Shown: positions 7,178 to 26,404 of the stretch, piece after piece
Numbering within the stretch: position 1 is the first letter of the stretch
Layout of the letters: each line of letters begins with the position of its first letter
NCBI GenBank assembly: GCA_031396695.1
Contig: JANNLG010000091.1
Coordinates: 3,632 to 67,631, forward strand
Length of the DNA: 64,000 nucleotides
Direction: 5' to 3'
From: Deltaproteobacteria bacterium
Lineage (GTDB): Bacteria; Myxococcota_A; UBA9160; SZUA-336
The notes under the pieces: generated by a model
Seen by the model: the letters and a program-made list of their open reading frames with translations, nothing else
Database searches by the model: none
Told to the model about the DNA's origin: nothing
Translations under genes and position numbers: made by a program

Positions 7178-7193
7178 TATGACCGGCGTCATA
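7178..7193. promoter_or_regulatory. Perfect palindrome TATGAC-CGGC-GTCATA, candidate Crp/Fnr-family operator (copy 1 of 5)
   Basis: Read directly. Centre is 66.5 bp upstream of the ACAD ATG (7119). A TACGTT (TAnnnT) hexamer lies 21 nt downstream of the site on the minus strand, the geometry of a class II (-41.5) activator site. The site overlaps the stop codon of the Crp/Fnr gene. Confidence 0.7.
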
Positions 7194-7878
7194 TGGACCG
7201 CGAATCGCTCGCGGACTCTCCGTTCGCGACCTGCTCGAGCGCTACGCGATCGAGCAGGCGGATCCAGCCCACTCCGCCCTCGATCCAGCCCGCGCGCTCG
7301 AAGCCGCGCAGCACGCGGATGGCCGTCTCGACGGTCGTGCCGGCCGCTTCACCCAGGATCCGGCGCTTCGTCACGAGCCGCTGTCCCTCCGGTGCTTCGA
7401 GCAGCACTCGCGCCATGCGCGCGGTGACGGTGTCACTCGCGAACGAGCACAGCCGGTCGTGCGCATGCTGCAGACGCTCCGCCACGATCGAGAGCAGACC
7501 TCGGGCGATGCCGGGATCCTCCGCCAGGAACGTCTGCACCACGCGACGCGGTACCCGCCACGCCTCGCCCGGCACGACGCCCTGCGCGGACTCCGCGTGA
7601 CTCGCCCCGGACGTCAGCGCCGCGAGTCCGAACAAGTCACCGATCTGGAGGCGCTCGAGCTCGATCGCCCGTCCCGAAGCGTGGCTCTTCAGCGTGCGCA
7701 GCTCGCCGTTGCCGACGGCGAACATGTACTCCGCCGCCGCCGATTCGAAGTACAGGTACTCGCCCTCGCGGAACGGAATCGAGCGCACGTGAGGTCTGAG
7801 ACGGGGCATCCGCGCCGGTCCGAGCAGCCGGAACAGCGCGGTTTCCTCGAGCGGTCGCGGCTTCGCAGGGGCCTGCAT
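7189..7878 (-). CDS. Crp/Fnr-family transcriptional regulator (no FNR-type Cys cluster)
   Basis: 229 aa. Has a cNMP-binding-like beta-roll plus a C-terminal HTH (GTTVETAIRVLRGFERAGWI) resembling the FNR recognition helix TVETISR. Contains only one Cys. Confidence 0.9.
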   Translation of the reverse strand: MQAPAKPRPLEETALFRLLGPARMPRLRPHVRSIPFREGEYLYFESAAAEYMFAVGNGELRTLKSHASGRAIELERLQIGDLFGLAALTSGASHAESAQGVVPGEAWRVPRRVVQTFLAEDPGIARGLLSIVAERLQHAHDRLCSFASDTVTARMARVLLEAPEGQRLVTKRRILGEAAGTTVETAIRVLRGFERAGWIEGGVGWIRLLDRVALEQVANGESASDSRSI

Positions 7879-7948
7879 CTCAGACTGTCCCCGAGCTGCA
7901 CTGAGGCAGAGCGCCCTGTGCGGGGCAATTCGGCACGGCGACGGGATG

Positions 7949-7964
7949 TATGACCTTCGTCATA
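7949..7964. promoter_or_regulatory. Perfect palindrome TATGAC-CTTC-GTCATA (copy 2 of 5)
   Basis: Lies in the divergent gap between the Crp/Fnr gene (ATG 7878) and the hemerythrin-like gene (ATG 8010). Suggests autoregulation. Confidence 0.7.
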
Positions 7965-8009
7965 GACGCTCCGCCCGCTGATTTTGCATGTTCGGTGCCG
8001 GAGGTAGCG

Positions 8010-8420
8010 ATGTCAGCGCACGCGACGTCGAATCCCATGATCCGCTGGTGGCAGGAGCACAGTGAGCTCGACGGCCTGGTCGAGGTCGTGGTCGAGGCGC
8101 TCGGCGGGGGCGCGATCGACTCCGCGGGCGAGTCGCTCGAGGATCTCGCAAGAGCGCTAGAGGCGCACTTCGAGCTCGAGGAGACAGCCTACTTCCCGCT
8201 GGTCGAGCGCCTCTCGCCCGACCAGCGCGCAGCGGTCGATGCGGCGCGGGTCGGTCACAGAAACATCCGCGAGCGACTCGAGGCTCTACTCACGCTCGTC
8301 GCGACCGGAGACTTGCGCGCCGCACGGGCGGCGTTCGACGTCCTGCTCGAGCGCTTCCGCACCCACGAAGCCGAAGAGGGCAAGTTGATCGCGCGGCTCG
8401 AGGCACTCGCCACCAGCTAG
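8010..8420 (+). CDS. Hemerythrin-like (HHE cation-binding) domain protein
   Basis: 136 aa from the internal ATG at 8010 (GGAGG at 8000-8004). Repeated H/E metal-ligand spacing (EHSELD, HFELEE, GHRNIRE, THEAEE) in a four-helix pattern. Confidence 0.7.
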   Translation: MSAHATSNPMIRWWQEHSELDGLVEVVVEALGGGAIDSAGESLEDLARALEAHFELEETAYFPLVERLSPDQRAAVDAARVGHRNIRERLEALLTLVATGDLRAARAAFDVLLERFRTHEAEEGKLIARLEALATS

Positions 8421-9754
8421 GGCGCGGGTCGGACGAAGTTGTTCATCCAATAGATGAACAGGCCCGTCAGCGCGACGTAGAGCCAGATGGGATAGCTGAT
8501 CCGCACGAGCCGCCGGTGCTCGGCGAAGCGCTCGCCAAGCGCGAGCTGCAACGTGCGCGCGACCAGCGGCACGACGGCGACGGCGAGCACGGTGTGAGTG
8601 GTCAGCACGGCGAGGAAGAAGGTTCGCAGCCAGTCGTCACCCGGAAAGCGGCGATGCCCGGCGAGACCGGTCTGCAGCACGTACAGCACCACGAAGAGCG
8701 CTCCGAGCGACACCGCCGAGAGCATCAGGCGTCGGTGCACCTCGCGCTGGCCGCGCCGGATCGCCACCAGCGCGGCAATCAAGAGCGCCGTGATCGCCGC
8801 GTTCAGCGCGCCGTTCAGGTGCGGCAGTAGCTCGCGTGGGCTCATCTCGACTCCTCGGGCTCCGAGCTCTAGGAGCATCGCGCCAAACAGACTCGAGAGG
8901 TAGAGCAGTGAGACGACGAACACGCGCCGATCGCCTGCGGCGCTGCGAGTGCGCACGGCCGCTGCGATCGAGCCCACGAACGCGATTCCGCCCGCGAGGG
9001 CGATGCTCGCGTAGCCGGCGCCGAGTACGCCGCCGGCGACCGGAAGCAGAGTCACGGGAATCAGCGCCAGCGCGAAGGCGAGCATGAAGCGACGAGTGAC
9101 TTGATCTCCGGCCACGGAGGGAAGCATGCGGAACGACGCCGCCTCGTACTCCTCGCGCCGGTACAGCGCGATCGCGAACACGTGCGGCGGTTGCCAGACC
9201 AGCACGATCGCGGCGAGCGCGATCCCCCACGGGCTGACGCGGCCGTCGACGGCGGCATCGGCGATCAACGGTGCAGTGCAGCCGGCGAACGCGCCCACCA
9301 GCGTGTTCCAGGCGCTGCGCGGCTTCAGCCAGATCGTGTAGACGAGCAGATAGTGCGCGAGCGTCGCCGCGCCGATCGCCGCGGGCAGCCAGCCACCGAC
9401 GGCGAAGAGCGCCAGCAGTCCGGCGACCGACGTCGCCATCCCGAAGGCCAGCGCGCGTCGAACCGGCAGCCGGCCGCTCGGCAGCGGGCGTGCGCGCGTT
9501 CGCTCCATGCGGGCGTCCGCGTCGCGCTCCCAGCACGCGTTGAGCGCGCTCGATCCCGCGCCGACGAGCGCGACTCCGAGCAGCGCGCCGAGCACCGTCG
9601 TCAGGTCGGGAAGTGCCGGCTGACCGAGCACGAACGCCGGCAGTGCGGTCAGCAGCACGCCGAGCAGCACGCCCGGACGCGTCAGGTCGAGATAGTCGCG
9701 CGCGCCCGATGTGCGCGGTGCGAGAGTCGCGACCTGCTGAGCGCTCGACGTCAT
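8417..9754 (-). CDS. ctaB: Protoheme IX farnesyltransferase (heme O synthase) fused to a DUF420 (CtaM-like) membrane domain
   Basis: 445 aa. The N-terminal ~290 aa is a UbiA-type prenyltransferase with CtaB/CyoE-like loops (NACWERDADARMERTRARPLP). The C-terminal ~150 aa (LPHLNGALNA...HRRLM...THTVLA...HRRLVRISYPIWLYVALTG) matches the DUF420 pattern. Confidence 0.85.
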   Translation of the reverse strand: MTSSAQQVATLAPRTSGARDYLDLTRPGVLLGVLLTALPAFVLGQPALPDLTTVLGALLGVALVGAGSSALNACWERDADARMERTRARPLPSGRLPVRRALAFGMATSVAGLLALFAVGGWLPAAIGAATLAHYLLVYTIWLKPRSAWNTLVGAFAGCTAPLIADAAVDGRVSPWGIALAAIVLVWQPPHVFAIALYRREEYEAASFRMLPSVAGDQVTRRFMLAFALALIPVTLLPVAGGVLGAGYASIALAGGIAFVGSIAAAVRTRSAAGDRRVFVVSLLYLSSLFGAMLLELGARGVEMSPRELLPHLNGALNAAITALLIAALVAIRRGQREVHRRLMLSAVSLGALFVVLYVLQTGLAGHRRFPGDDWLRTFFLAVLTTHTVLAVAVVPLVARTLQLALGERFAEHRRLVRISYPIWLYVALTGLFIYWMNNFVRPAP

Positions 9755-9764
9755 CCGGTCTCTC

Positions 9765-11852
9765 CTAGTGCAGGGTGAAGCCCGACGCGCGGTCGAACGC
9801 GATCACCCGCCGGGCTCGCTCGTCGAACGCGATGGACTGCTCGCTCGTGTGGGCCCACTCGTCGTCGTGGGTATCACCGATCTCCACGCGCACGAGGTGC
9901 TCTCCCGCAGGGACCGAGAGCGGCGCGACGGCGACGCTGGCGCCGTCGTTCCAGATGCCCTCGGGCGCGAAGCTCTCGTCGACCACTCGCGCACCGTCCA
10001 CGCTGACGCGCAGGCGAACCGGGGCGCGGCCCCGCTCGCACACCTCCGCCTGTCGCATGTGTCTGGGCAGACGTTCGAGCTCTTCCTCGCTGCGCGTGCG
10101 ACACACGTCGCTCTGTCGACCGGGGTGCTTGAACGTGACCACGAGCTCGGCGCCCGGCGCAGCAGGCGCGGTATAGCCCCAATCGCTGACAACGCCGATG
10201 ATCGCGCTGACGAGCAGCGCCAGAGCGACGGACCCCACGCCCGCCAGCGCGCGCGGTGGCTCCACAGTGGCTGGCCGTGGACGGTCTGCGAGCATTCGCG
10301 CGGCCGCGCGCACAAGCTCGGACTTGCGGGTCCGGTCGAGCCAGACGACCTCGATCCGCTCACGCACCTCGTGCTGCACACGCAGCGCCGGCCCACGCGT
10401 CCCGTCGAGCCGCTGGCCGAGAAACTCGGGCCCCTCGCGAAAGTGACACGATCCGGGCGGGCAGCTCACGATCAGCACCTGCTTCGCGCCGCGCCGCAGC
10501 GCCCGCTCGATCGACATCGCGTGGACCCAGCCCGCACACGGACCCGCCTGAACCCGCCAGCCGGGCAGCTCCGCACACAGCCCCGTCTTCGGGTCGATCT
10601 CGAGCGCACCTCCCGCCGACTGCGCGCAGACGAACGCGACGCCTGGCTGCTCGCCGTCCTGTCGTGCATGCTCGAGCCACGACGCGACGCGCTTGCGCTG
10701 TTCCAGCAGCGGGAACGCGGGCAGATCCGTGCCGATCGAATTGCACGAAGCCACGCAGATCCCGCACGCGACGCACTTCGCCGGGTCGACACGCGCCTCG
10801 AGCGCGTAGCTCTCGCGGCGGACCGGCTCCTCGCGTGTGACCATCGAGATCGCCTCGTACGGGCAGTCCTGGTAGCACTGCTCGCAAGCGTTGCAGCGCG
10901 CGGGGTCGACGGCCGCGCTCCGCGGCGCGCGCTTGCGCAGCGACCACGGCACCGCGCCGACCAGAGCGCCGCCGACGAGACACACGGTCCAGACCGCTCC
11001 GCCCGACAGCCGCTGGCCGAGCGCGAGCGGAAACAGGTACCACCAATCCATGCTGAACGACTCCGCGCGCGCGGTCATCTGCGCGCGCTCGGCGCTCGCG
11101 GCGGGATACGCGACCGAGAGCAGCGCGAGCGATCCCAGCACCCAGATCGTCATCGGAGCGCGCGTCAGGAAGCGCGCCCGCGCCGTGCGAGTCAGGTGCA
11201 GCCAGAGCAAGAACGCGAGCGCGAGAGGAACGAGCATGTGGAAGAAGAACACCACGAAGAACAACAGCGAGTTGATGCCCTCGTCGAACAGGAACGAGCG
11301 GCCCATCGGATCCGCGAAGATCGGCAGCGCGTCGAGCGCCTTCGCCGTCTCGATCGCCACGTATTTCCCGCGCACGTCCCAGACCAGCCAGTAACCGGTC
11401 CAGCCGAGCAGCCAGAGCACGCCAAGCGACAGCACGCCGGTCACCCACGCGACCCAGCGCGCGCCGCTGAAGCGTCTCTCGAAGAACAGCCGCAGCGCGT
11501 GCACCAGTCCGAAGAAGATGCACGCGTCGGAGCTGTAGCGGTGCAGCGAGCGCAAGAATCCCGCGCTCCACGGAGCGCTCGACATCGCGGCGACCGAGTC
11601 GTAGGCGAGGTACACGCTCGGGCGGTACCAGAACAGAAGCAGCACGCCCGTGACCGTGGCGACGAAGAGAGCGGTCAGCGCGACCGCCCCGGTCTGCAAG
11701 AACGGATTCAGCGCGTCGGGAAGCGCGCGCCCGAGCACGCGATCGAAGCCGAGGAACGAACGCTCGAGCAGACGCAGCGCGGCCTCCCCGCGGACCGATG
11801 CCTCGCCACCGTGCGCGGCCTCACCGGCCAGCCCGGCGCCTTCAGCCGCCAT
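9765..11852 (-). CDS. Fusion protein: di-heme cytochrome b (bc1/b6 N-terminal type) + 2x[4Fe-4S] ferredoxin + MvhD/FlpD-like domain + TM + C-terminal beta-rich domain
   Basis: 695 aa. Two His pairs on predicted helices (SLHRYSSDACIFFGLVHALR and FFFHMLVPLALAFLLWLHL). CNACEQCYQDCP and CVACGICVASCN cluster motifs. MvhD-like VAFVCAQS...GPCAGWV...VLIVSCPPGSCHFREG. Confidence 0.8.
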   Translation of the reverse strand: MAAEGAGLAGEAAHGGEASVRGEAALRLLERSFLGFDRVLGRALPDALNPFLQTGAVALTALFVATVTGVLLLFWYRPSVYLAYDSVAAMSSAPWSAGFLRSLHRYSSDACIFFGLVHALRLFFERRFSGARWVAWVTGVLSLGVLWLLGWTGYWLVWDVRGKYVAIETAKALDALPIFADPMGRSFLFDEGINSLLFFVVFFFHMLVPLALAFLLWLHLTRTARARFLTRAPMTIWVLGSLALLSVAYPAASAERAQMTARAESFSMDWWYLFPLALGQRLSGGAVWTVCLVGGALVGAVPWSLRKRAPRSAAVDPARCNACEQCYQDCPYEAISMVTREEPVRRESYALEARVDPAKCVACGICVASCNSIGTDLPAFPLLEQRKRVASWLEHARQDGEQPGVAFVCAQSAGGALEIDPKTGLCAELPGWRVQAGPCAGWVHAMSIERALRRGAKQVLIVSCPPGSCHFREGPEFLGQRLDGTRGPALRVQHEVRERIEVVWLDRTRKSELVRAAARMLADRPRPATVEPPRALAGVGSVALALLVSAIIGVVSDWGYTAPAAPGAELVVTFKHPGRQSDVCRTRSEEELERLPRHMRQAEVCERGRAPVRLRVSVDGARVVDESFAPEGIWNDGASVAVAPLSVPAGEHLVRVEIGDTHDDEWAHTSEQSIAFDERARRVIAFDRASGFTLH

Positions 11853-12777
11853 CGGGCTTCTCCCGCAGGAGAAGCTCCAGCGCCGAGCTCAGCCAGCGCT
11901 GCTGCCGCTCACCCAGCGTGAGTCGATAGGCGATGCGCCCGTCCCGGTCGACGAGGAGAAAGAGATTCGCGTGATCGATCACGCCGGTCTCGGGATCGCG
12001 GGTGCGCGCGATGCCCATGTCGTCGAGCACGCGCTCGACCTCGGTCGGCTCGCCGGTGACGAGCGCATAGAGCGGCGCCTCGATCTGGTGACTGCGCGCG
12101 AGCGCCGCGAGCACGTCTGGCGTGTCGTGCGCCGGATCCATGCTGACGGCGATCACGCGCAGATCGCCGCGCAGCTCCGCGGGCACCGCCGCGATCGCCG
12201 CCTTGGTCTGACCGAAAATCAGCGGACAGCTCAGCGGGCACGACGAGTACACGGCAGTCAGCAGCACGACCTTGCCCCGCAGTGCTTCGAGATCCAACGT
12301 GACTCCGTCCTGATTCACGAGCCGCAGAACGGGCGAGTGGAGCTGCGTGCGCAGCGCCTCGGCCGGGAACGTCAGCTGATCTCCCTCGGGCTCGCGACCG
12401 AGCGCCGTGAAGGAGATGGCGGCAATCGCGACGAAGAGAGCGCTCGATAGACATGGCCACACCCACGCGCGGCGTTGTGCCGCCAGCGCGCGCAACGGCT
12501 GCCACCAGAACAGCGCGATGACCGGAGCGATCACGGCCGGCGGTCCCATCATGGCCATCACGTAGCCCGGATTCAGACGGCCCGTCGCGGGGTCGTAGCC
12601 GAAGCACCAGATCCGGAACTCGTCCGCGAACCCGCCCATGCTCGTCTCACCTCCCGGGCTGAACAGCATCACGAGCAGCAGCAGCTCCCAGAACACGAGC
12701 ACGCCGAGCGCGAATGCGGGAAAGCCGCCGCCGTCGAAGAAGCGTTCGGCGTCCGCGCGGGCGTCGAGGGTGGTCAT
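11842..12777 (-). CDS. SCO1/SenC-family copper chaperone with extended N-terminal membrane region
   Basis: 311 aa from the ATG at 12777, which forms an ATGA overlap with the subunit I stop. Thioredoxin-fold CxxxC copper motif (SSCPLSCPLIF) and a downstream conserved His (D.AH.DTP-type region). The 669-aa ORF in the track is an artefactual N-terminal extension. Confidence 0.8.
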   Translation of the reverse strand: MTTLDARADAERFFDGGGFPAFALGVLVFWELLLLVMLFSPGGETSMGGFADEFRIWCFGYDPATGRLNPGYVMAMMGPPAVIAPVIALFWWQPLRALAAQRRAWVWPCLSSALFVAIAAISFTALGREPEGDQLTFPAEALRTQLHSPVLRLVNQDGVTLDLEALRGKVVLLTAVYSSCPLSCPLIFGQTKAAIAAVPAELRGDLRVIAVSMDPAHDTPDVLAALARSHQIEAPLYALVTGEPTEVERVLDDMGIARTRDPETGVIDHANLFLLVDRDGRIAYRLTLGERQQRWLSSALELLLREKPDGG

Positions 12778-14525: not shown

Positions 14526-14529
14526 CGCG

Positions 14530-15057
14530 CTACTCCTCGACCAGGATGCGTCCGGCCATCAGGTGGTGGCCGATGCCGCAGAACTCGTTGCAGATGATCG
14601 TGAACTCACCCGAGCTCGTCGGAGTCAGGGTGAGCACGTGGTCGTAGCCCGGCAGGATCTGGAAGTTCATGTTCAATGGCTGCAGCGAGAAGCCGTGCTG
14701 CAGGTCGATCGACGAGATGTGTACGCGGTAGGTCTGATCCTTCTTGAGCTTCAGGACCGGAAACCACGACCACATCTGCGCCTGCAGATAGGCGTCTCCT
14801 CCGGGCGCGGGCTGCACGATCGGGATGCCGTTCAGCTCCCCGACTTGGTTCGTGGACACGAAGCGCGCCACGCGCTGGGCGAACTCCGCGGGCGTGACCC
14901 GGTACGCCTCGCCGGTGCTGTTCTGCTTGCCGTAGAAGTGCCAGTACGGCATTGCGACGAACATCACGAGGCACCAGCTCATCGCGAGGCCGACCCAGAG
15001 TCTCTCCGCTCCGTGCGGCGCCTTGAACCAGCCCGCCGGCGGTGGATGAATGCTCAT
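14530..15057 (-). CDS. Heme-copper oxidase subunit II with complete CuA site (single TM, ba3-like size)
   Basis: 175 aa with one N-terminal TM and a cupredoxin domain. CuA ligand pattern: H in DLQHGFSL, and CNEFCGIGHHLM (C-x-E-x-C-G-x2-H-x2-M). Confidence 0.85.
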   Translation of the reverse strand: MSIHPPPAGWFKAPHGAERLWVGLAMSWCLVMFVAMPYWHFYGKQNSTGEAYRVTPAEFAQRVARFVSTNQVGELNGIPIVQPAPGGDAYLQAQMWSWFPVLKLKKDQTYRVHISSIDLQHGFSLQPLNMNFQILPGYDHVLTLTPTSSGEFTIICNEFCGIGHHLMAGRILVEE

Positions 15058-15072
15058 GCGATCACTCCTTGT

Positions 15073-15228
15073 TCACGGCAACGTCGCGGGCGCCAGGTAG
15101 TACAGCTCGACCCATGCCCAAAGCGTGTACGAGACGATCGGGATCAACACCCCGAGCGCGAGCAGCAGCCACGGATTGTCCATGAGTCTCTGCAGCGGGT
15201 GGACGTAGCCCGAGTCACTTCGCGCCAT
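15073..15228 (-). CDS. Small single-TM membrane protein (oxidase accessory subunit candidate)
   Basis: 51 aa from the ATG at 15228 with a GAGGAGG RBS. One hydrophobic helix (PWLLLALGVLIPIVSYTLWAWV). Position is analogous to the small subunits of ba3/cbb3 oxidases. Confidence 0.5.
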   Translation of the reverse strand: MARSDSGYVHPLQRLMDNPWLLLALGVLIPIVSYTLWAWVELYYLAPATLP

Positions 15229-17084: not shown

Positions 17085-17085
17085 C

Positions 17086-18492: not shown

Positions 18493-18508
18493 TATGACGG
18501 CGGTCATA
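18493..18508. promoter_or_regulatory. Perfect palindrome TATGAC-GGCG-GTCATA (copy 3 of 5)
   Basis: Lies in the divergent gap. Centre is 62.5 bp from the 450-aa gene ATG (18438) and 42.5 bp from the nitroreductase ATG (18543). Confidence 0.7.
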
Positions 18509-18542
18509 AGCCGGGGGATTGCGCCCGGCTAGTGTCGTGTTG

Positions 18543-19325
18543 ATGGAACTACGCGGTGTACTCGGTGGGCGGCGTTCGATCCGCTTCTTCGACCCGGATC
18601 GACCGGTCGAGCGTGCGAAGATCCAGAGGATGCTCGAGGCGATGCGAATCGCTTCGTGCGCGGTGAACGCGCACTGGCTGCGCGCGGTGGTGGTGAATCG
18701 CGCCGACATCCCGGCCGCGACGCTGGAGGCTCTGAAGACGCCCGTCGCCGGGCTCGTCCAAGAGCTCGCTCCGGTCCACATCTACTGCTACCTCGACGCG
18801 GGCGTGGTCACGCGCGTGAAGGGTGCGCGCCTGAAGCAGCTCGTGGACGTCGGCGCGCTGAACCCGACGCACGGTTGGAGTCACCGCTTCGTCGACGAGT
18901 TCGTCTATCCCCAGATCCTCGAGCCGATGACGAAGGGGCCAGGCTATCTCGTCTCGGCCGCCTTCGACTGCGGCGGCGCCGGTACGCAGGGTCTGCTGGT
19001 CGCCGTCGACGAGGGACTCGGCGTCTGCTGGACGGCGTTCAACCCGGCGCCCGCAAAGCAGCTGCTCGGCGTGCCCGACGACTGGGTGCCTCTCTACTGT
19101 CTGAACGTCGGCTACGCACTCGAGTCACGCGATGCCGGTGGCCAGCGACCACGCCCGCCGTTCGAAGAGCTGTACTTCGAGGGTCGCTTCGGCCGGCCCT
19201 TCGCGCGCGACGCGAAGGTGGTCGGCGAGCTCGAGCAGACCGGCATGATCCAGCCGCCCGCGCCGCTGCCGGGCCGCCGCGAGGAAATTCGCGGGCTCGC
19301 GCACCGGCTCGGGCTGCCGGAGTAA
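18543..19325 (+). CDS. Nitroreductase-family protein (paralog of 5089..5877)
   Basis: 260 aa from the ATG at 18543 (MELRGVLGGRRSIRFF...). Alignable end to end with the 262-aa copy, including the C-terminal extension. Confidence 0.85.
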   Translation: MELRGVLGGRRSIRFFDPDRPVERAKIQRMLEAMRIASCAVNAHWLRAVVVNRADIPAATLEALKTPVAGLVQELAPVHIYCYLDAGVVTRVKGARLKQLVDVGALNPTHGWSHRFVDEFVYPQILEPMTKGPGYLVSAAFDCGGAGTQGLLVAVDEGLGVCWTAFNPAPAKQLLGVPDDWVPLYCLNVGYALESRDAGGQRPRPPFEELYFEGRFGRPFARDAKVVGELEQTGMIQPPAPLPGRREEIRGLAHRLGLPE

Positions 19326-19329
19326 CGCG

Positions 19330-19737
19330 GTGCCGCTCGAGCGCGCACCGGACACGTTCGGGAGCGTGGCGATCTGGCGCGCGGGCCTGCGCGCGCAGTG
19401 GGGCGGCGACCCGCTGGCCGAGGAGCCGAGCCGGCTCGAGAGCCTGGCCGACTTCTGCGTTTTCGCCGGACAGGATCCCGACGCGCTGGTGGCGTTCTGC
19501 GTCCTGCGCAAACGCGACACCGGCGAGCGTTTCGCCAGCGCCGCCCGCCGCGCCGAACTCGCCGCGAAGCTGCGCGCCTGGGTCGCCGAGCGCGGACTCG
19601 CGGGCGCGGCGGCACCGCGCGCCTCGGCCGACGTGCTTTCGTTCCTGATCCACAACGGTGTCATGATGAACCCGGGCGCCGCGCACACGACGCCCCCGCC
19701 CGCGGGCCCGACCACGCCTCCCGGTCAGCCCGCGTAG
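19330..19737 (+). CDS. Hypothetical protein (135 aa)
   Basis: GTG start 4 nt after the nitroreductase stop. Strong GC3 bias in this frame. No motif recognised. The Pro-rich tail overlaps the convergent LLM gene by 13 nt. Confidence 0.5.
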   Translation: MPLERAPDTFGSVAIWRAGLRAQWGGDPLAEEPSRLESLADFCVFAGQDPDALVAFCVLRKRDTGERFASAARRAELAAKLRAWVAERGLAGAAAPRASADVLSFLIHNGVMMNPGAAHTTPPPAGPTTPPGQPA

Positions 19738-20750
19738 AAGAGCTTCGCGATCCGCTCCTGGTACGCGAACAGGCGATCGGGAGCGAGCGCGTAGGCCGGT
19801 GGAACGAGACACAGGGAGTCGGCGACGGTCCAGGCGCGCTCGACCTGCGCGCGCACGCGATCGTTCGAGCCGAGCAGCACGAAGCAACGAACCATCTCGT
19901 CGGGGACGAGCCGGGCGTGCGACAGCACCTCTCCGCGCTTGACCTCTTGCTGCAGACGCCGCGCGACATCGCCGAAGCCGTGGGCTTCGAAGAACGACTC
20001 GTACTGCTGGATTCCGGCGTAGAACGCGACGCTCGCGCGCGAGTCCTCGATCGCCTCGCCCTCGTCAGAGTTCGGTGCGCACCAGAGCCAGAGGTTCAGC
20101 TCGATGTCTTCGCGCTTTCGGCCCGCGCGCGCGAGGCCGGCGCGCAGATCGGGCTGGATGCGCTCGACCGCCCAATCGAGCGACCACATCGGATGGCCCA
20201 TCACGCCGTTCGCGATCTCTGCGGCCAGGCGCACGGCGGGGCCGCGCAGCGCGGCGATCCAGACGGGCACGTCCTCGCGCAGCGGCGGCGCGGTCGGTTG
20301 CAACTCGGCGAAGTCGGCCCGGTAGTAGCGGCCTTCGAAGGGCTCGAGCCCGCGGTGCGCACCGCGCATCACGTGGCGCACGGCGGCGACGGTCTCGCGC
20401 AGGTGCTCGAGCGGTCGGTGCTCGGGCGCGCCGAACACGCCGCGCGTCCACGCTTGCACGCTCGCGCCGAGACCGAGCACGAAGCGACCGCCGCTCAGGC
20501 GGTCGAGGTCGAGCGCCGCCATCGCCGTCTCGAACGGGCTGCGCGCGGCGGCGATCGCGATGCCGCTCGCGAGTTTCACGCGCTCGGTCGCCATCGCGGC
20601 GGCGGCGAGCGGAATCCACGGGGGTCCGTAGACCTGCGGCGCGAACAGCCCCTCGAGTCCCTGTGCCTCCGCCTGTCGCGCGATCACATTCAGGATCGGC
20701 GCCGGCAGCGCGCTCACGAAGCCCCAGTACCGCCGTCGAGCACTCATCAT
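19725..20750 (-). CDS. LLM-class (luciferase-like) flavin/F420-dependent oxidoreductase
   Basis: 341 aa from the ATG at 20750 (GGGAG RBS). Has LLM TIM-barrel hallmarks (GFVSALP..., SGGRFVLGLGAS, insertion region). Confidence 0.85.
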   Translation of the reverse strand: MMSARRRYWGFVSALPAPILNVIARQAEAQGLEGLFAPQVYGPPWIPLAAAAMATERVKLASGIAIAAARSPFETAMAALDLDRLSGGRFVLGLGASVQAWTRGVFGAPEHRPLEHLRETVAAVRHVMRGAHRGLEPFEGRYYRADFAELQPTAPPLREDVPVWIAALRGPAVRLAAEIANGVMGHPMWSLDWAVERIQPDLRAGLARAGRKREDIELNLWLWCAPNSDEGEAIEDSRASVAFYAGIQQYESFFEAHGFGDVARRLQQEVKRGEVLSHARLVPDEMVRCFVLLGSNDRVRAQVERAWTVADSLCLVPPAYALAPDRLFAYQERIAKLFYAG

Positions 20751-20805
20751 GCTGCTCCCTGTCTGCCGTCTCGTCACAGCATCGGCGACGCCATGGCTGG
20801 GCGGC

Positions 20806-20821
20806 TATGACGGGCGTCATA
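20806..20821. promoter_or_regulatory. Perfect palindrome TATGAC-GGGC-GTCATA (copy 4 of 5)
   Basis: Lies in the divergent gap. Centre is 63.5 bp from the LLM ATG (20750) and 41.5 bp from the RND adaptor ATG (20855). Confidence 0.7.
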
Positions 20822-20854
20822 ACGACGAATCCACGCGCGCCGTAGCGTGCTTGC

Positions 20855-22015
20855 ATGACTTCGAGACACTCTCGCTGCGCGTTCATGGCCGTGCTCGCCG
20901 CTTCGCTCTGGGGGAACGGCTGCAATTCCCCGGTGGCTCCCTCACTAGAAGACGAGCGCGCAGCGAAAGCTTCGGCCGCGTCCGCGGCGGCGCCCTCCGT
21001 CGAAGGCGTCTACACCGCGCTGGTTCACCGTGGCCAGATCGCGAGCACGATCACGACCTCGGGTTCGATCGCCGCGCGCCGCTCGACCACGCTCGGTCCG
21101 TCTGTGCCCGGACGCATCATCCACATCTTCGTGCAGGTCGGTGACGAGGTTCCGTTCGGCGCGCCGATCTTCCAGATCGACCCAGGGCCCTACGCGAGCA
21201 TCCAGGCCGAGGCGGATGCCGGTCTCGCGGTCGCGCGCGCCGACCTCGAGGACGCGCGCGAGAACGAAGCACGCATTGCCATGCTGGCCGCCAAGGAGAT
21301 GATCTCGAGCGAGGATCACCGCCGCGCGCGCACGGCGGTCAAGCTCGCGATGTCGCGGCTCGAGGCAGCCGAGGCGCGGGCATCGCGCGCGCGCGACGAC
21401 TTGAACCGCACGCTCGTGCTCGCGCCCTACGCGGGAAGCATCATCGAGCGCAGCACCCACGAGGGCACCATGGCGACGGTCACGCCGAACACCGCCGTCG
21501 TCGTGCTGCAGGAGAGCGGTGAGCTCGAGGCGATCGTCGACGTGCCCGAGGCATCGCGTATCGCCGTGCGGCCGGGTGACCGCGTGCGCATCTGGACCGA
21601 GGAGCTGCCCGCGCCGCTCGAGTCGGAGGTGCGCGCAGTGAGCCGCGCGATCGACCCGCGCACGCGTACCTACCGCGTGCGCGCGAGCGTTCGCGATCCG
21701 AGCAGCACGCTCAAGTCGGGCGCGTTCGTGCGCGCCGAGATCAGTCCCGGTCCGCGTCCGGAAGCGCTGCTCGTGGAGCGTTCCGCAGTCGTGCAGCGCG
21801 ACGGCAGCTCGTACGTCTTCCGCGTCGCCGACGGCCGCGCCGAACGCATCAGCGTGCGCCTCGGCGTGCTTGGCCTGCAGGACGCGGAAGTGCTCGATGG
21901 ACTCGCAGACGGCGACCGCGTCGTGCTCGGCGATGTGGTCGGGAGGCTCGATGACGGCGCGCGCGTGCGCCCGATCGAGGTCGCGGCGGGCCCTGCGCCG
22001 AAGGCGCGGCCGTGA
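20855..22015 (+). CDS. RND efflux periplasmic adaptor (membrane fusion protein), probable lipoprotein
   Basis: 386 aa. N-terminal hydrophobic segment ending in Cys (AASLWGNGC). Coiled-coil hairpin, lipoyl and beta-barrel pattern of the HlyD/AcrA family. GTGA overlap with the pump gene. Confidence 0.85.
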   Translation: MTSRHSRCAFMAVLAASLWGNGCNSPVAPSLEDERAAKASAASAAAPSVEGVYTALVHRGQIASTITTSGSIAARRSTTLGPSVPGRIIHIFVQVGDEVPFGAPIFQIDPGPYASIQAEADAGLAVARADLEDARENEARIAMLAAKEMISSEDHRRARTAVKLAMSRLEAAEARASRARDDLNRTLVLAPYAGSIIERSTHEGTMATVTPNTAVVVLQESGELEAIVDVPEASRIAVRPGDRVRIWTEELPAPLESEVRAVSRAIDPRTRTYRVRASVRDPSSTLKSGAFVRAEISPGPRPEALLVERSAVVQRDGSSYVFRVADGRAERISVRLGVLGLQDAEVLDGLADGDRVVLGDVVGRLDDGARVRPIEVAAGPAPKARP

Positions 22016-25000
22016 AGCTCGCCTCGCTCTCGATCCGGCGACCGGTGTTCGCGCTGATGCTGTCACTCGGGCTGGTCGTGCTCGGCTTGGTCTCGCTTTC
22101 GCGCCTCGAGATCGCGCTCGACCCGGACGTGGAGTTCCCGTTCATCGCGGTGACGACCGTGCTGCGCGGCGCCTCGCCCGAGACCGTCGAGTCCGAGATC
22201 ACCGACGTGCTCGAGGAGGAGATCAACACCACCGAGGGCATCCGCTCGCTGCGCTCGGTCTCCGCGGAGAGCCTCTCGCAGGTGTTCGTCGAGTTCGAGA
22301 TCGGCGAGGACGTCGACGTGAAGGCTCAGCAGATCCGCGACAAGGTCGCGCTCGCGCGTCCGCGGCTGCCGCTCGACGCGGAGGACTCCGTGGTCGCGCA
22401 GCTCGATCCGGACGCGGCGCCGATCCTGTCGATCCTGCTGGCGGGACCGTATGCGATTCGCGAGCTCTCCGAGCTCGCGGAGAACGAGGTCGCCGATCGC
22501 ATCGAGCGGCTGCCCGGAGTGGGCAGTGTCTCGGTCGTGGGCTCGCGCAGGCGCGAGATCCGCATCTGGCTCGATCCGCTGAGACTGTCCGGCTACGGGC
22601 TCTCGATCGAAGAGATCGCCGACGTGCTGCGCCGCGAGAACGCGGAGCTCGCCGGCGGCCGGATCGAGAACGCCGAGCAGGAGTGGGCGGTCACGACCGC
22701 CAACAAGGTCGGCCGGATCGACGACTTCGGCAGCCTGATCGTCGCCGAGCGTGGTGGCAGCCTCGTTCATCTGCTCGACGTGGCCACGATCGAGGACGGC
22801 CTGCAAGAGGAACGCAGCATCGCGCGCCTGAACGGCGAGCGCGGCGTTTCCCTCGAGGTGCGCCGACGCAGCGGCGCCAACACCGTCGCGGTTGCGCGCG
22901 CGGTGCGCGCGACCGTCGAGGAGCTGCGCGCGACCCTGCCCGCCGGCCTGTCGATGTCGCTCGCGCGCGACAACGCGACCTTCATCGAGGACTCGATCGG
23001 CTCGATCTTCGAGGACATGGTGCTCGGCGCGATCCTGACCGTAGCGGTCGTGCTGCTCTTCCTGCGCAACCTGCGCTCGACGCTGATCGCTGCACTCGCG
23101 ATCCCCGCCAGCGTGATCGCCTCGTTCACGTTCTTCCTGATGGCGGGCTTCACGCTGAACATGATGTCGCTGATGGCACTCTCGCTCTCAATCGGGCTGG
23201 TGATCGATGACGCGATCGTGGTGCTCGAGGCAATCTACCGCCGGCTCGAGTCTGGCGAGTCCCGCCGTGAGGCCGCGGACCGGGGAACCGAACAGGTCGG
23301 GCTCGCGGTCGTGTCCACGACACTCGCCGTGTGCGCGGTTTTCGTGCCGATCGCCTTCATGTCGGGCATGGTCGGCCAGTGGTTCTACGAGTTCGGCTTG
23401 GTCGTCGCGATCGCCGTCGGCGTCTCCACGCTGGTGGCGCTGACGCTCACGCCGATGCTTGCGAGCAAACTGCTGCGGCTCGAGCGTGCACCCGGTCGCA
23501 CGGTGCGCACGCTCGAGCGCGGCCAGACCGCGCTCGAGCACGGCTATCGGCGCCTGCTGGCCGGCGCGTTGCGACGCAAGGGACTCACGGTCGGCGCAGC
23601 GCTCGTCGCGATCGTGCTCGGACTCGGCGTGGCAGCGCTTCTGCCCTTCGACTTCTACCAACAGGGCGATCAAGGCGAGTTCGCGGTCGACGCCAAGCTC
23701 CCGATCGGAACACCGCTCGGCGTCACCGATCGGGTTTCTCGACGCATCGAGGAGATCGTCTCAGCCCAACCGCATGTGCTCGACGTGTTCGCGACGGTCG
23801 GGCCCGGCTTGCAGCGCGAAGCCAACCGCACGCACATCGTCGTGAAGCTGGTGCCGAAGCAGGAGCGGAGCGCGACCCAGCTCGACGTGATGGACGCCCT
23901 GCGCGAGACGCTGCACGATGCGGTGCCGGAGGCCGAGGAAATCTCCGTCGGCGAGCTCTCCTGGATCCAGTTCAGCGGTGGACGCTCCGCGACGCTCGTC
24001 TACACGCTGCGCGGTCCCGACCTCGAGCGGCTCGCAGGTCACGCGGCGGCGCTGGTCGCGCGCATGAAGTCCGACCCGGTCTTCGTCGACGTCGCGTCGT
24101 CGCACGAGACCGGCCGGCCGGAGATCCGGCTCACGCTCGCGCGCGACGTCGCCGCGGACTTGAGCGTGCCCGGCGTCGCGGTCGGCCGCACGATCCGCGC
24201 GCTGCTCGCCGGTGAGAAGGTCGGCACCTTCGAGCAGTCCGGCGAGCGCTACGACGTGCGCGTGCAGGTGCTCCCGGAGTATCGCGACGATCCCGGCGAG
24301 CTCGACCTGATCCGCGTGCGCTCCATGCGCGGCGATCTGGTCCCGCTCACCAACGTGGCGCGCGTGCGCATCGGCGAAGGCCCGGTCGAGATCCATCGCG
24401 AGGATCGCTCGCGGCAGATCACGCTGTACGCAAACCTCGCGCACGGCGCGCCACTCGGCGTCGGATCGCAGAAGCTCGAGGCCTGGGGCCGCGAGCTCGC
24501 GATCGTTAGCCCGGACGAGCTGGCGGCCGCGGGGCGCGCGCGCGCGATGATGGAGACGGGTACGGCCATCCGCTTCGCGTTCTTCCTGGCGCTCGCGGCC
24601 ATCTACATGATCCTCGCATCGCTGTTCAACTCGCTCGTGCATCCGTTCACGATCATGGTGTCCGCGCCGCTCGCGTTCATCGGCGGCTTCCTCGCGCTCT
24701 GGTTCGCGGGCATGTCACTCGACCTGATGAGCGGCATCGGCCTGCTGGTGCTTCTGGGTCTGGTGATGAAGAACGGCATCCTGCTGGTCGACTGCGCGAA
24801 CCAGCTGCGCGAGGACGGCCGGAGCGCGCAGAACGCCATGCTCGAGGCGGGCCCAGTGCGCTTGCGCCCCGTGCTGATGACGACGGGCGCGCTGATCTTC
24901 GGTCTGCTGCCGGTCGCGTTCAGTGCCAGCTCTGGCTCGGAATTCCGCGCACCCATGGCCATGATCACCGTCGGCGGCCTGTTGACCTCGACGCTGCTCA

Positions 25001-25146
25001 CCTTGGTCGTGGTTCCGGTCGTCTATTGCCTGCTCGATTCGCTGCGCATCGGCGCCGCATTGCGCCTCGGCACCGCTCTGCGCGAGCGGCTTCGCGGATG
25101 GTCAGGGCTCGTCGAAGAACGAATCGATCTCGGGCGGCGCCCGTAG
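22012..25146 (+). CDS. RND efflux transporter permease (AcrB/HAE family)
   Basis: 1044 aa. Internally duplicated 12-TM architecture with two large periplasmic loops. Typical N-terminus SIRRPVFALMLSL. Confidence 0.95.
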   Translation: MKLASLSIRRPVFALMLSLGLVVLGLVSLSRLEIALDPDVEFPFIAVTTVLRGASPETVESEITDVLEEEINTTEGIRSLRSVSAESLSQVFVEFEIGEDVDVKAQQIRDKVALARPRLPLDAEDSVVAQLDPDAAPILSILLAGPYAIRELSELAENEVADRIERLPGVGSVSVVGSRRREIRIWLDPLRLSGYGLSIEEIADVLRRENAELAGGRIENAEQEWAVTTANKVGRIDDFGSLIVAERGGSLVHLLDVATIEDGLQEERSIARLNGERGVSLEVRRRSGANTVAVARAVRATVEELRATLPAGLSMSLARDNATFIEDSIGSIFEDMVLGAILTVAVVLLFLRNLRSTLIAALAIPASVIASFTFFLMAGFTLNMMSLMALSLSIGLVIDDAIVVLEAIYRRLESGESRREAADRGTEQVGLAVVSTTLAVCAVFVPIAFMSGMVGQWFYEFGLVVAIAVGVSTLVALTLTPMLASKLLRLERAPGRTVRTLERGQTALEHGYRRLLAGALRRKGLTVGAALVAIVLGLGVAALLPFDFYQQGDQGEFAVDAKLPIGTPLGVTDRVSRRIEEIVSAQPHVLDVFATVGPGLQREANRTHIVVKLVPKQERSATQLDVMDALRETLHDAVPEAEEISVGELSWIQFSGGRSATLVYTLRGPDLERLAGHAAALVARMKSDPVFVDVASSHETGRPEIRLTLARDVAADLSVPGVAVGRTIRALLAGEKVGTFEQSGERYDVRVQVLPEYRDDPGELDLIRVRSMRGDLVPLTNVARVRIGEGPVEIHREDRSRQITLYANLAHGAPLGVGSQKLEAWGRELAIVSPDELAAAGRARAMMETGTAIRFAFFLALAAIYMILASLFNSLVHPFTIMVSAPLAFIGGFLALWFAGMSLDLMSGIGLLVLLGLVMKNGILLVDCANQLREDGRSAQNAMLEAGPVRLRPVLMTTGALIFGLLPVAFSASSGSEFRAPMAMITVGGLLTSTLLTLVVVPVVYCLLDSLRIGAALRLGTALRERLRGWSGLVEERIDLGRRP

Positions 25147-25620
25147 GCCCAGCTGGATCGCGGCGATATCCGCGATCTTCCGCCGCGCGGCGATCAGGTG
25201 GACCGGGATCGAGATCGCGATCGCCCAAGACAGCCAGATGTGGGAGTCGAGCGCGAAGTCGGCCGCGCCGACCGGCAGGTGCTCCTGCTGCCACAGCGCG
25301 AGGCCGGAGAGCGACAACAGCAGCGACAACACGAGCGTGAGCACGATGTGCAGCTTGCGCCAGTTCGGCGGATCGGGCGGGCCGAGCCGCGCGCCCAGGT
25401 CGCGAGCGAGCGGCCGCGCCGCGAGCGCCAACGAGAGCAGCGGCGCGGCGATGAACGCGAAGCCCGTCCACTCGTGCACGGCGGCGAGCGCCAGTCCGTA
25501 GCCGCCGAGCAGCTGCGCGCGCAGCTCCGGCCAGTGGATCAGAACGCCGGTGGCGACGAGCAGCAGGCTGGCGCAGGCATGCGCGGCGTGGAGGGCGCGT
25601 CGCAGGCTTCCCGGGCTCAT
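25102..25620 (-). CDS. Four-helix b-type cytochrome (cytochrome b561 / hydrogenase-FDH gamma-like) membrane protein
   Basis: 172 aa with 4 predicted TM segments and conserved-looking His on the helices (LIHW, AVHEW, LHIVL, SHIW...PVHL). Divergent from the molybdoenzyme operon. The RBS is weak. Confidence 0.6.
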   Translation of the reverse strand: MSPGSLRRALHAAHACASLLLVATGVLIHWPELRAQLLGGYGLALAAVHEWTGFAFIAAPLLSLALAARPLARDLGARLGPPDPPNWRKLHIVLTLVLSLLLSLSGLALWQQEHLPVGAADFALDSHIWLSWAIAISIPVHLIAARRKIADIAAIQLGLRAPPEIDSFFDEP

Positions 25621-25655
25621 GGATTTGGAGGCTATGGGCGCGGCCGTCGCACGCC

Positions 25656-25671
25656 TATGACAGCCGTCATA
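25656..25671. promoter_or_regulatory. Perfect palindrome TATGAC-AGCC-GTCATA (copy 5 of 5)
   Basis: Lies in the divergent gap. Centre is 66.5 bp from the gamma-subunit ATG (25730) and 43.5 bp from the cytochrome b ATG (25620). CAGATT lies 21 nt downstream toward the molybdoenzyme operon. Confidence 0.7.
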
Positions 25672-26401: not shown

Positions 26402-26404
26402 GCG

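Follow-up and report, generated by a model that had tools for sequence, protein, structure and literature searches.

The locus examined here raises the question of what five identical palindromes, spread over the promoter gaps of a 64,000-nucleotide stretch of deltaproteobacterial DNA (the window), are for, and which protein reads them. An exact search of the window recovered five perfect copies of TATGAC-N4-GTCATA, with the positions and spacers given in a preliminary description of this DNA: box 1 at 7178..7193 (TATGACCGGCGTCATA), box 2 at 7949..7964 (TATGACCTTCGTCATA), box 3 at 18493..18508 (TATGACGGCGGTCATA), box 4 at 20806..20821 (TATGACGGGCGTCATA) and box 5 at 25656..25671 (TATGACAGCCGTCATA), all listed without strand. 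The number expected by chance had been put far below one, and no perfect box occurred in 100 dinucleotide-preserving shuffles of the window, versus five in the real sequence. A mismatch search, proposed earlier as a check, added no site in the window at one, two or three mismatches. The hexamer GTCATA occurs in the window solely at the five boxes, and the one further TATGAC, the sixth, lies at 27778 and is not half of a palindrome, as had been noted (with a position near 27779). Conservation is limited to the 16 bp; flanks and 4-bp spacer have the G+C-rich composition of the background. All five boxes are intergenic, four of them between divergent genes, and the first sits on the end of a regulator gene, whose TGA stop codon (7189-7191) is the TGA of a half-site; this placement had been read correctly. 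The region with both boxes flanking the regulator was found in three independent assemblies (L001-L003), thus an assembly artefact is ruled out.

The box contains the TGA-N6-TCA core of Crp/Fnr-type palindromes (TA-TGA-C N4 G-TCA-TA), and the window encodes a single Crp/Fnr-family protein, in agreement with the preliminary description. This regulator of 229 aa (7189..7878, minus strand) consists of an N-terminal cNMP-binding-like beta-roll (cNMP_binding, PF00027, E = 8e-13) and a C-terminal Crp-type helix-turn-helix domain (HTH_Crp_2, PF13545, E = 3.5e-10). Its matches in the PDB were FixK2, CRP, Cmr, NtcA, FNR and DNR; the best solved structure, FixK2 (4i2o), matched weakly (E = 8e-13), and the matches to FixK2, Thermus CRP and M. 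tuberculosis Crp were all weak to a similar degree. The recognition helix GTTVETAIRVLR is unchanged in 30 family members at 50-86% identity, and an alignment with FNR, CRP and DNR shows no change at E184, T185 and R188 of the helix GTTVETAIR. H140 and C144 are invariant across the regulator family, C144 being the sole conserved cysteine. The regulator has no N-terminal cysteine, and the family alignment bore out the earlier statement that an FNR-type cysteine cluster is absent. In the alignment with the reference proteins, what we take to be the column of FNR C122 holds Trp, those presumed for the heme-cofactor residues His139 and His187 of DNR hold Gln and Ala/Gly, and those presumed for CRP E72, R82 and S83 hold a gap, His and Ala. 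CRP contacts cAMP through E72, R82 and S83 and binds TGTGA-N6-TCACA. CRP proper was rejected as a candidate, since the cAMP-contact columns differ and the box is without GTG; FNR proper, the O2 sensor, was rejected for want of the four-Cys [4Fe-4S] ligand set, which in FNR is made up of three N-terminal cysteines and C122, and for the ATGAC half-site in place of TTGAT-N4-ATCAA. Among 1.84 billion representative proteins, only six clusters matched the regulator at E <= 1e-30, so that its clade is small.

The comparison with related loci, likewise suggested before, covered 36 loci with 670 kb, the window included, in which the regulator is at least 39% identical. In these loci, all retrieved by peptide patterns from the regulator itself and all from uncultured MAGs or metagenome contigs, 32 perfect boxes were present against 0.004 expected and 24 one-mismatch boxes against 0.18 expected, and 31 of the 36 regulator-selected loci carried at least one box. 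The usual place of the box is next to the regulator gene, in many cases 55-90 bp ahead of it or directly after its stop codon. Boxes were also present near distantly related regulators of other phyla that share the helix (six perfect copies vs 0.03 expected). All perfect sites have A instead of T before TGA, that is ATGAC and not TTGAC or TTGAT, and variants with one or two mismatches at orthologous positions, e.g. TATGAT/ATCATA, retain the promoter geometry described below. The box tracks the regulator family, and together with the invariant helix this co-occurrence supports the earlier proposal that the boxes are the predicted sites of the adjacent Crp/Fnr regulator.

A fixed distance to a downstream hexamer characterizes the boxes. 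In the flanks of all 35 perfect boxes (70 flanks) TANNNT started at an offset of 21 nt past the box in 13 flanks and of 22 nt in four, while it was found at only four other places across offsets 0-63 of the same flanks. With the relaxed pattern nAnnnT, 64 flanks of high-G+C loci gave 22 starts at offset 21 and ten at offset 22 over a background of about 1.2 per other offset; thus 32 of the 64 flanks carry a -10-like hexamer, mostly TAnnnT, 21-22 nt past the box. These 64 flanks show nothing conserved that resembles a -35 element, and no conserved bases lie between box and hexamer. Judged by its spacing, the hexamer is placed in the geometry of class II (-41.5) activation. Start-codon distances past the hexamer are bimodal: in about 17 cases a start codon follows 6-10 nt after the hexamer, which predicts a leaderless mRNA, and other start codons stand at 20-40 nt with a visible Shine-Dalgarno GGAGG. 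The leaderless starts are consistent with full-length domains, a lipoprotein signal peptide and a Tat signal.

Within the window this rule assigns predicted promoters to at least one side of each box. Box 1 is the predicted driver of the minus-strand operon for acyl-CoA dehydrogenase (ACAD), nitroreductase, thiolase, acyl-CoA (AMP) ligase and a HemN-like radical SAM protein (786..7119); the hexamer TACGTT (7151..7156, minus strand) lies exactly 21 nt away, as had been pointed out, and HemN, earlier counted to the regulon, is supported as the last gene of this operon (786-2186). Box 2, between the regulator (-) and a hemerythrin HHE-domain protein of 136 aa (8010..8420, plus strand), has class II placement for the latter, a predicted target, with the -10-like hexamer CATGTT at 7987..7992 (plus strand, 22 nt). 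Box 3 has a -10 on the plus side only: TAGTGT (18530..18535, 21 nt) is followed after 7 nt by the ATG of a nitroreductase-family protein (18543..19325, plus strand), a predicted target whose mRNA is probably leaderless and whose arrangement is kept in L106. Box 4 is predicted to act bidirectionally, on a luciferase-like monooxygenase (LLM; 19725..20750, minus strand) through GATGCT (20778..20783, minus strand, 22 nt) with a leadered mRNA and the Shine-Dalgarno sequence AGGGAG, and on a HlyD-type membrane-fusion lipoprotein with an AcrB-type RND pump (20855..25146, plus strand) through TAGCGT (20843..20848, plus strand, 21 nt), where the ATG 6 nt after the hexamer predicts a leaderless mRNA and the signal peptide of the lipoprotein starts at ATG 20855. 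Box 5 would likewise serve two sides, a cytochrome b561-type membrane protein (25102..25620, minus strand; TAGCCT at 25629..25634, minus strand, 21 nt; ATG 8 nt after, predicted leaderless) and a type II DMSO-reductase-family enzyme encoded gamma-beta-alpha (25730..30273, plus strand; CAGATT at 25693..25698, plus strand, 21 nt). The subunits of this molybdoenzyme are gamma (EB_dh), beta (Fer4_11) and alpha; the alpha subunit is exported by the Tat route, and the solved structure nearest to it is that of ethylbenzene dehydrogenase (EBDH). Three of the -10 elements in the window are weak (CATGTT, GATGCT, CAGATT).

The preliminary description had derived class II promoters from the distances between box centre and four start codons. 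All four distances, spanning 62.5-66.5 bp, are correct (66.5 bp for ACAD, 62.5 bp for a 450-aa gene, 63.5 bp for LLM and 66.5 bp for the gamma subunit), and the class II assignment is retained for ACAD, LLM and the gamma subunit, where a -10-like hexamer at 21-22 nt precedes a leader with a Shine-Dalgarno sequence. It is not supported for the 450-aa gene, on whose side of box 18493 a -10-like hexamer is absent. Orthologues of this gene lack the box save in the closest relative, and the 450-aa gene is not supported as a target. In other lineages it stands in box-free operons together with the LLM, nitroreductase, thiolase and ligase genes. The list of targets was also incomplete: it missed the leaderless promoters of nitroreductase, HlyD and cytochrome b561 and the hemerythrin promoter, and the strongest promoters of the window are the leaderless ones on the opposite sides (ATG 18543, ATG 20855, ATG 25620). 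A NOR-like heme-copper oxidase had been placed in the regulon as well. Since the hexamer is lacking, the gap of 420 bp between the 450-aa gene and the oxidase operon is free of boxes and genes of the oxidase operon were not found near the regulator in other genomes, this membership is not supported.

Transcription of the regulator gene itself seems to start from a conserved promoter of the sigma-54 type. A -24/-12 element (CGGCACCGAACATGCA; 7985..8000, minus strand) points at the gene, and of about 15 close orthologues, the window counted, 11 have such an element at the corresponding place. GGCA[CT]-N5-[CA]TGCA is carried by the window, L004, L005, L007, L008, L015, L085, L087, L109, L110 and L111; it is absent or degenerate in L006, L009, L010 and L112. 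As a positive control, other matches in L009 lie upstream of glnB and amtB. The element overlaps the -10 and the 5' UTR of the opposite-strand hemerythrin gene, thus part of its conservation could stem from there. A gene for an enhancer-binding protein is missing from the window. No class II -10 was found on the regulator's side of box 7949, so that autoactivation is not supported; class II autoactivation of the regulator gene is probably not the case. Counted along the putative sigma-54 transcript of the regulator, box 2 would span about +10 to +27.

Across different MAGs the gene families recurring downstream of boxes are the regulator (8), hemerythrin (6), the molybdoenzyme alpha subunit (8), ACAD (7), MobB (4), cytochrome b561 (3) and the gamma subunit (2). 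The conserved core regulon is, as read from the box positions, composed of hemerythrin, ethylbenzene-dehydrogenase-like molybdoenzymes, MobB and acyl-CoA genes. In each of the 15 close orthologous loci examined, the hemerythrin and regulator genes form a divergent pair. The cross-genome regulon includes O2-independent enzymes (HemN, EBDH-like molybdoenzymes) as well as O2-dependent ones (PhyH, AurF-like, FAD monooxygenase, LLM). In the loci examined no hcp, nir or nor gene stands directly behind a box, and a regulon of the DNR/HcpR type, centred on hcp, nir, nor and nos, was rejected because no such gene is directly downstream.

We consider it very likely that the boxes are predicted dimer sites of the 229-aa regulator, which would activate at least seven transcription units in class II manner and would itself be expressed from a putative sigma-54 promoter. 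The box centre would be located about 41.5-42.5 bp upstream of the transcription start and stand in for the -35 element, and the bound regulator would recruit sigma-70 RNA polymerase to the -10 (TAnnnT or the weaker nAnnnT) 21-22 nt past the box. The symmetry of the box may allow sites 20806 and 25656 to serve promoters on both sides, and with these two bidirectional sites the five boxes would drive at least seven units: ACAD-nitroreductase-thiolase-acyl-CoA ligase-HemN, hemerythrin, the second nitroreductase, LLM, HlyD-AcrB, cytochrome b561 and the EBDH-like gamma-beta-alpha genes. Three of the seven would be leaderless, their ATG standing 6-8 nt past the -10. The regulator gene would be transcribed from the sigma-54-type promoter upstream of box 7949; from its place a short way past the start, this box could serve to repress the gene, and the regulator would be the output of a cascade headed by some enhancer-binding protein. 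Box-regulator co-occurrence, the invariant helix, the fixed -10 spacing and the bimodal start-codon distances come directly from the sequence statistics; physical binding, activation rather than repression, the sigma-54 cascade and the signal we infer.

The signal to which the regulator responds can be read in several ways. Tentatively, the regulator itself may sense O2, NO or the redox state in the manner of DNR, HcpR or FNR, with the regulon as a low-oxygen or nitrosative-stress response, as proposed in the preliminary description. The TGAC-N4-GTCA core agrees with the boxes of HcpR1 and beta-proteobacterial DNR (TTGACnnnnGTCAA), and hemerythrin- and ferredoxin-like genes are common members of HcpR regulons (PMC1274295). 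The constant pairing with hemerythrin, the O2-independent HemN and Mo-bisMGD EBDH-like enzymes among the targets, the invariant H140 and C144, and the heme d1 (nir) biosynthesis genes nearby in L085 point the same way. Against such a sensor stand the missing N-terminal cysteine cluster and the presumed FNR C122 and DNR His139/His187 columns, which are not matched; nor does any locus examined have hcp, nir or nor directly behind a box, the NOR-like oxidase operon of the window is unsupported as a target, and O2-dependent enzymes are among the targets. It is rather unlikely that the regulator is effector-independent like FixK2, its activity set by its amount, an upstream sensor and a sigma-54 enhancer-binding protein switching on the gene and the downstream box providing negative feedback. 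FixK2 as best structure match, the sigma-54-type promoter of the close orthologues and the lack of a class II -10 at box 7949 fit this proposal, and L087 and L088 contain a protoglobin histidine kinase and a sigma-54 response regulator beside the hemerythrin-regulator pair; yet the window has no enhancer-binding protein gene, some orthologues miss the element, and other PDB matches are similarly weak.

Less probable is the sensing of a pathway substrate or intermediate, as in CprK, by which the regulon would serve the breakdown of an isoprenoid, sterol or hydrocarbon-like lipid. The presence, in one locus, of several paralogous alpha subunits of the EBDH/steroid-C25-dehydrogenase-like kind (compare PMC6016249), the targets ACAD, SCP-type thiolase and acyl-CoA ligase, the conserved targets WS/DGAT and PhyH, the RND pump of the window and the box-free operons of other lineages speak for it, but the invariable hemerythrin pairing and the HemN target favour a gas or redox input. 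Doubtful in its entirety is a two-tier circuit of a small regulator clade confined to uncultured Myxococcota and relatives, in which a sigma-54 enhancer-binding protein would turn on the regulator gene, the regulator would repress its own sigma-54 promoter from the box past the start, the same box would activate hemerythrin as an O2/NO-sensing partner, and largely leaderless class II promoters would serve O2-independent hydroxylases of the ethylbenzene/steroid-C25-dehydrogenase type and the acyl-CoA pathway downstream of them. A dispersed repeat of REP/MITE-like kind, or a site for a protein other than the regulator, is an explanation of the palindromes that is already largely refuted and hardly credible. 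All copies in the window are perfect and none degenerate, which is unusual for transcription-factor sites; against a repeat stand the restriction of likeness to 16 bp, the position at gene 5' ends, where a -10 follows at a set distance, the association with one regulator family across phyla and the promoter geometry kept by the mismatched orthologous variants.

Relatives of the predicted switch are known. HcpR1 of Geobacter, Desulfuromonas and cyanobacteria and the beta-proteobacterial DNR use boxes of the type wyTTGACnnnnGTCAArw (Rodionov et al. 2005, PMC1274295). Set beside HcpR1 by box and description, our regulator shares with these systems the 5-N4-5 palindrome with a TGAC-N4-GTCA core, the gene of a Crp/Fnr-family protein beside its targets and hemerythrin-like and ferredoxin-like genes as frequent targets; it differs in the A before TGA, the invariant outer T (TATGAC) and the lack of hcp, nor and nir behind the boxes, and at the CRP-R180 position it has V, as in FNR, where HcpR1 is reported to have S or P. 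Class II sites of E. coli FNR (TTGAT-N4-ATCAA at -41.5) have the same geometry without a -35 element, an identical 29.5 bp between the box centre and the opening base of the hexamer, a helix TVETxxR with the same Glu and Arg, and hemN-type targets. In contrast, the half-site here is ATGAC (with TATGAT variants at orthologous sites), Ile replaces FNR Ser212, the [4Fe-4S] cysteine cluster is lacking and overall identity is about 20%. With the FixLJ-FixK2 system of Bradyrhizobium the regulator shares, apart from the structure match, the lack of obvious effector-binding residues and a gene seemingly under a separate upstream regulator and negative feedback, but the upstream promoter is of sigma-54 type, the box sequence differs, and a counterpart of the FixK2 Cys183 switch is not evident. 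CprK of Desulfitobacterium (dehalobox TTAAT-N4-ATTAA), too, is a Crp/Fnr activator for a nearby catabolic or respiratory enzyme cluster, with a different box sequence.

On this reading the boxes belong to a gene switch of a kind ordinary in bacteria, here in a regulator subfamily from uncultured Myxococcota that is itself unstudied, and no new mechanism is revealed. The specificity code of the Crp/Fnr family, linking helix to box, gains a data point, V-E-T-A-I-R with ATGAC. The regulator is tied to ethylbenzene-dehydrogenase-like molybdoenzymes, with several paralogues per genome, and to an acyl-CoA pathway; to our knowledge, little is known about the control of such oxygen-independent hydroxylases. 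The operator TATGAY-N4-RTCATA and the promoter rule (box, 21-22 nt, TAnnnT, often leaderless) are proposed for an uncharacterised Crp/Fnr subfamily; with them, regulons may be read directly off the MAG sequences of uncultured Myxococcota, Binatia and lineages related to these.

Five exact matches of the palindrome TATGAC-N4-GTCATA (TATGACNNNNGTCATA) were found in the window, starting at 7178, 7949, 18493, 20806 and 25656, and none in 100 dinucleotide-preserving shuffles of it. All details of the preliminary description, the five perfect palindromes with their positions, their distances to the start codons and a TACGTT hexamer, were recovered. Up to three mismatches (searched as one, two or three) yielded no additional box in the window; matches with four mismatches appeared random and none was located in the gap upstream of a heme-copper oxidase (HCO) operon (16667-17085). 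GTCATA was confined to the five boxes, and TATGAC occurred outside of them only at 27778. A chance origin is remote, since 12 fixed, mostly A/T positions are placed in DNA with a G+C content of 69.5 %. An origin as dispersed repeat or mobile element was rejected, as the copies have just the 16 bp in common; no conservation was found in box flanks or spacers. The region of the adjacent Crp/Fnr regulator, together with both flanking boxes, was present in three independent assemblies (L001-L003). Neither Rfam nor tRNA searches of the window gave a match. ATG can be read on both strands of the box, which also includes TGA, and the stop codon of the regulator gene is the TGA in a half-site of box 7178. 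ORF finders and gene callers therefore open genes inside the box: spurious starts within 7178-7193 and 7949-7964 created ORFs of 156 and 473 aa in the window, and a 157-aa hemerythrin call in the related locus L110 (909) is of the same kind.

The regulator (229 aa, 7189-7878, minus strand) is the sole Crp/Fnr protein encoded in the window. Its relatives form a small family in metagenome-assembled genomes of uncultured Myxococcota and 'Deltaproteobacteria', with only 6 clusters at E <= 1e-30 among 1.84 billion representative proteins. Related loci were collected by a scan of one genome per species (80 loci) and contig look-ups (2 loci), with the window added. In the close set of 36 loci (670 kb, regulators at least 39 % identical to that of the window), 32 perfect boxes were observed against 0.004 expected and 24 one-mismatch boxes against 0.18 expected, and 31 of the 36 loci had at least one box. 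The usual place was 55-90 bp ahead of the regulator start or straight after the regulator stop. The distant set of 47 loci, from Elusimicrobiota, Eisenbacteria, Methylomirabilota, Ignavibacteria and other phyla, has regulators of 25-33 % identity with the helix TTVET[AT]IR in common; it contained 6 perfect boxes (0.03 expected). Nearly all boxes were at 5' ends of genes, only two one-mismatch copies deep within ORFs. Position 6 of the box may be T in orthologous sites (TATGAT/ATCATA). The boxes are thus very probably activator sites of the adjacent regulator.

Promoter anatomy was analysed by counting hexamers in the 60-70 nt on either side of each perfect box. Over 35 boxes (70 flanks), TANNNT started 21 nt past the box end in 13 cases and 22 nt past it in 4, while all other offsets from 0 to 63 together had only 4 starts. 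For the relaxed nAnnnT, counted in 64 flanks of high-G+C loci, 22 flanks had a start at offset 21 and 10 flanks one at offset 22, against a background of about 1.2 per offset. If the hexamer is taken as -12 to -7, the box centre is at -41.5 or -42.5. This is the class II position for FNR and CRP. Between box and hexamer no -35-like conservation was present in the 64 high-G+C flanks; a generic sigma-70 promoter scan gave no matches because it demands a -35. Start codons fell into two groups, either 20-40 nt past the hexamer with a GGAGG-like Shine-Dalgarno sequence or 6-10 nt past it, too close for a leader. About 17 starts in the related loci, and in the window those at 18543, 20855 and 25620, belonged to the latter group, implying a high frequency of leaderless mRNAs among these Myxococcota-related lineages.

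Four leadered promoters were predicted in the window. They precede the acyl-CoA dehydrogenase (ACAD) operon (-10 TACGTT, ATG 7119, minus strand), a hemerythrin HHE-domain gene (8010-8420, plus strand; CATGTT, ATG 8010), a luciferase-like monooxygenase (LLM) gene (19725-20750, minus strand; GATGCT, ATG 20750) and the gamma subunit gene, followed by those of the beta and alpha subunits, of an enzyme in the type II DMSO-reductase family (25730-30273, plus strand; CAGATT, ATG 25730). The ACAD operon (786-7119, minus strand) continues with nitroreductase, thiolase, acyl-CoA ligase and a HemN-like radical SAM enzyme (786-2186, minus strand). Leaderless promoters were predicted to be those of a nitroreductase (18543-19325, plus strand; TAGTGT, ATG 18543), of HlyD plus AcrB (20855-25146, plus strand; TAGCGT, ATG 20855) and of cytochrome b561 (25102-25620, minus strand; TAGCCT, ATG 25620). 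The HlyD lipoprotein signal peptide and full-length domain matches are consistent with these leaderless starts. On two sides a -10 hexamer of this kind was absent, the regulator side of box 7949 and the side of box 18493 facing a gene for a 450-aa protein (17086-18438, minus strand). Downstream of the molybdoenzyme operon, at 30875-33325, are two genes for PhyH-family dioxygenases, one apparently truncated (181 aa), and one for a TylF-type O-methyltransferase; no box was found near them.

The preliminary description had included an NO-reductase-like HCO in the regulon and the 450-aa gene as target of box 18493; neither assignment could be maintained. The oxidase operon (8417-16666, minus strand) was rejected as a member, having neither box nor -10 nor conservation: a box-free gap of 420 bp (16667-17085) sets it apart from the 450-aa gene, and no oxidase-operon gene was found within 10 kb of the regulator in other genomes. 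Against the 450-aa gene as a target stand the missing hexamer and the orthologues, since 19 of 20 metagenomic loci carrying them have no box. Nor is its product part of the oxidase operon, because other lineages place the gene in LLM-450aa-thiolase-ligase operons. The soluble 450-aa protein had no Pfam or NCBIfam match, yet was conserved with 70-97 % identity in 20 metagenome contigs (L089-L108), where its gene is regularly part of LLM-450aa-thiolase-acyl-CoA ligase operons next to a nitroreductase. It belongs to this acyl-CoA pathway as an uncharacterised enzyme.

The oxidase operon encodes a fusion of heme O synthase with DUF420 (8417-9754, minus strand), a 695-aa fusion of cytochrome b, 4Fe-4S ferredoxin and FlpD-like domains, a membrane-anchored SCO1/SenC protein (about 11842-12774), HCO subunits I and II and a polytopic membrane protein of 483 aa that matched no family. 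Subunit I (12774-14525, minus strand) is nearest to the B-family ba3 oxidase and keeps all six canonical histidines, with the cross-linked Tyr replaced by Gln (GHMSQQ vs GHPIVY); subunit II (14530-15057, minus strand) retains the CuA motif CNEFCGIGHHLM. Judged by the criterion that Murali et al. 2024 (PMC11214002) give, these features point to a putative NO reductase, of a type derived from the B family, and away from an O2 reductase.

The regulator gene seems to be controlled differently from the box targets. The hemerythrin-regulator gap contains CGGCACCGAACATGCA (8000 to 7985, minus strand); no other place in the window matched a relaxed sigma-54 -24/-12 pattern. The element is oriented toward the regulator gene, ends 20 nt ahead of box 7949 and overlaps the hemerythrin -10 on the opposite strand. 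GGCA[CT]-N5-[CA]TGCA was found at the equal relative position in L004 (9879), L005, L007 (9823), L008 (1986), L015 (9827), L085 (9821), L087 (9857), L109, L110 and L111 (9896); as positive control, two more matches in L009 were upstream of glnB and amtB. The window has no gene for an enhancer-binding protein; next to the hemerythrin-regulator pair, L087 and L088 encode a protoglobin histidine kinase together with a sigma-54 response regulator. With a functional element, the regulator mRNA would begin some 10-20 nt ahead of the box, and the bound regulator would hence impede its own transcription. We consider such a putative sigma-54-type promoter with a self-hindering box somewhat favoured. 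The logic resembles FixLJ-FixK2, and FixK2 was also the best, albeit weak, solved-structure match of the regulator.

The recognition helix GTTVETAIRVLR was invariant in 30 family members of 50-86 % identity, and for that reason helix-box covariation gave no usable signal. The nearest described box is that of HcpR1/DNR, TTGACnnnnGTCAA (PMC1274295), from which the present one differs by an A preceding TGA and a fixed outer T. A literature search with box and helix peptide revealed no earlier description, only this related HcpR/DNR box. Regulator and FNR share V-E at the helix positions corresponding to CRP 180/181, whereas Ser212 of FNR is Ile in the regulator; as proposed before, this exchange may fit the changed first half-site base. 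In an alignment with FNR, CRP and DNR, the regulator lacked the FNR cysteine cluster, as already claimed from the sequence, and an equivalent of C122, the Arg82/Ser83 pair of CRP and His139 and His187 of DNR. H140 and C144 on the long helix are invariant in the family and, speculatively, candidate redox or metal residues.

Directly behind boxes were the regulator (8 genomes) and the divergent hemerythrin (6 genomes), with one box between the two; this gene pair was present in 15 of 15 close orthologous loci examined. ACAD followed a box in 7 genomes, as first gene of ACAD-nitroreductase-thiolase-ligase operons, MobB in 4, cytochrome b561 in 3 and the gamma subunit in 2. Single cases were PhyH, WS/DGAT and a ferredoxin-AurF-like-FAD monooxygenase operon. 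An ethylbenzene dehydrogenase (EBDH)-like molybdoenzyme alpha subunit (~950 aa) was behind boxes in 8 genomes, often with 2-4 paralogues per locus; that of the window has a Tat signal and EBDH as nearest solved relative (682 bits). In L014, L018, L023, L024, L029 and L087 at least two tandem alpha paralogues, ~40 % and ~75 % identical to the window's subunit, follow one MobB-gamma-beta set. Sterolibacterium likewise has multiple paralogous alpha subunits of steroid C25 dehydrogenases (PMC6016249).

The Crp/Fnr regulon of the preliminary description thus stands, while its target list and physiological reading had to be corrected. It is real and conserved, very probably a class II activator regulon, and of an already known kind; new are the regulator subfamily, the box variant and the clean promoter rule. 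O2-independent enzymes (HemN, EBDH-like) and O2-dependent enzymes (PhyH, AurF-like, FAD monooxygenase, LLM) both belong to it, and what they have in common is catabolism of a lipid-, isoprenoid- or sterol-like kind and not any obvious response to NO.
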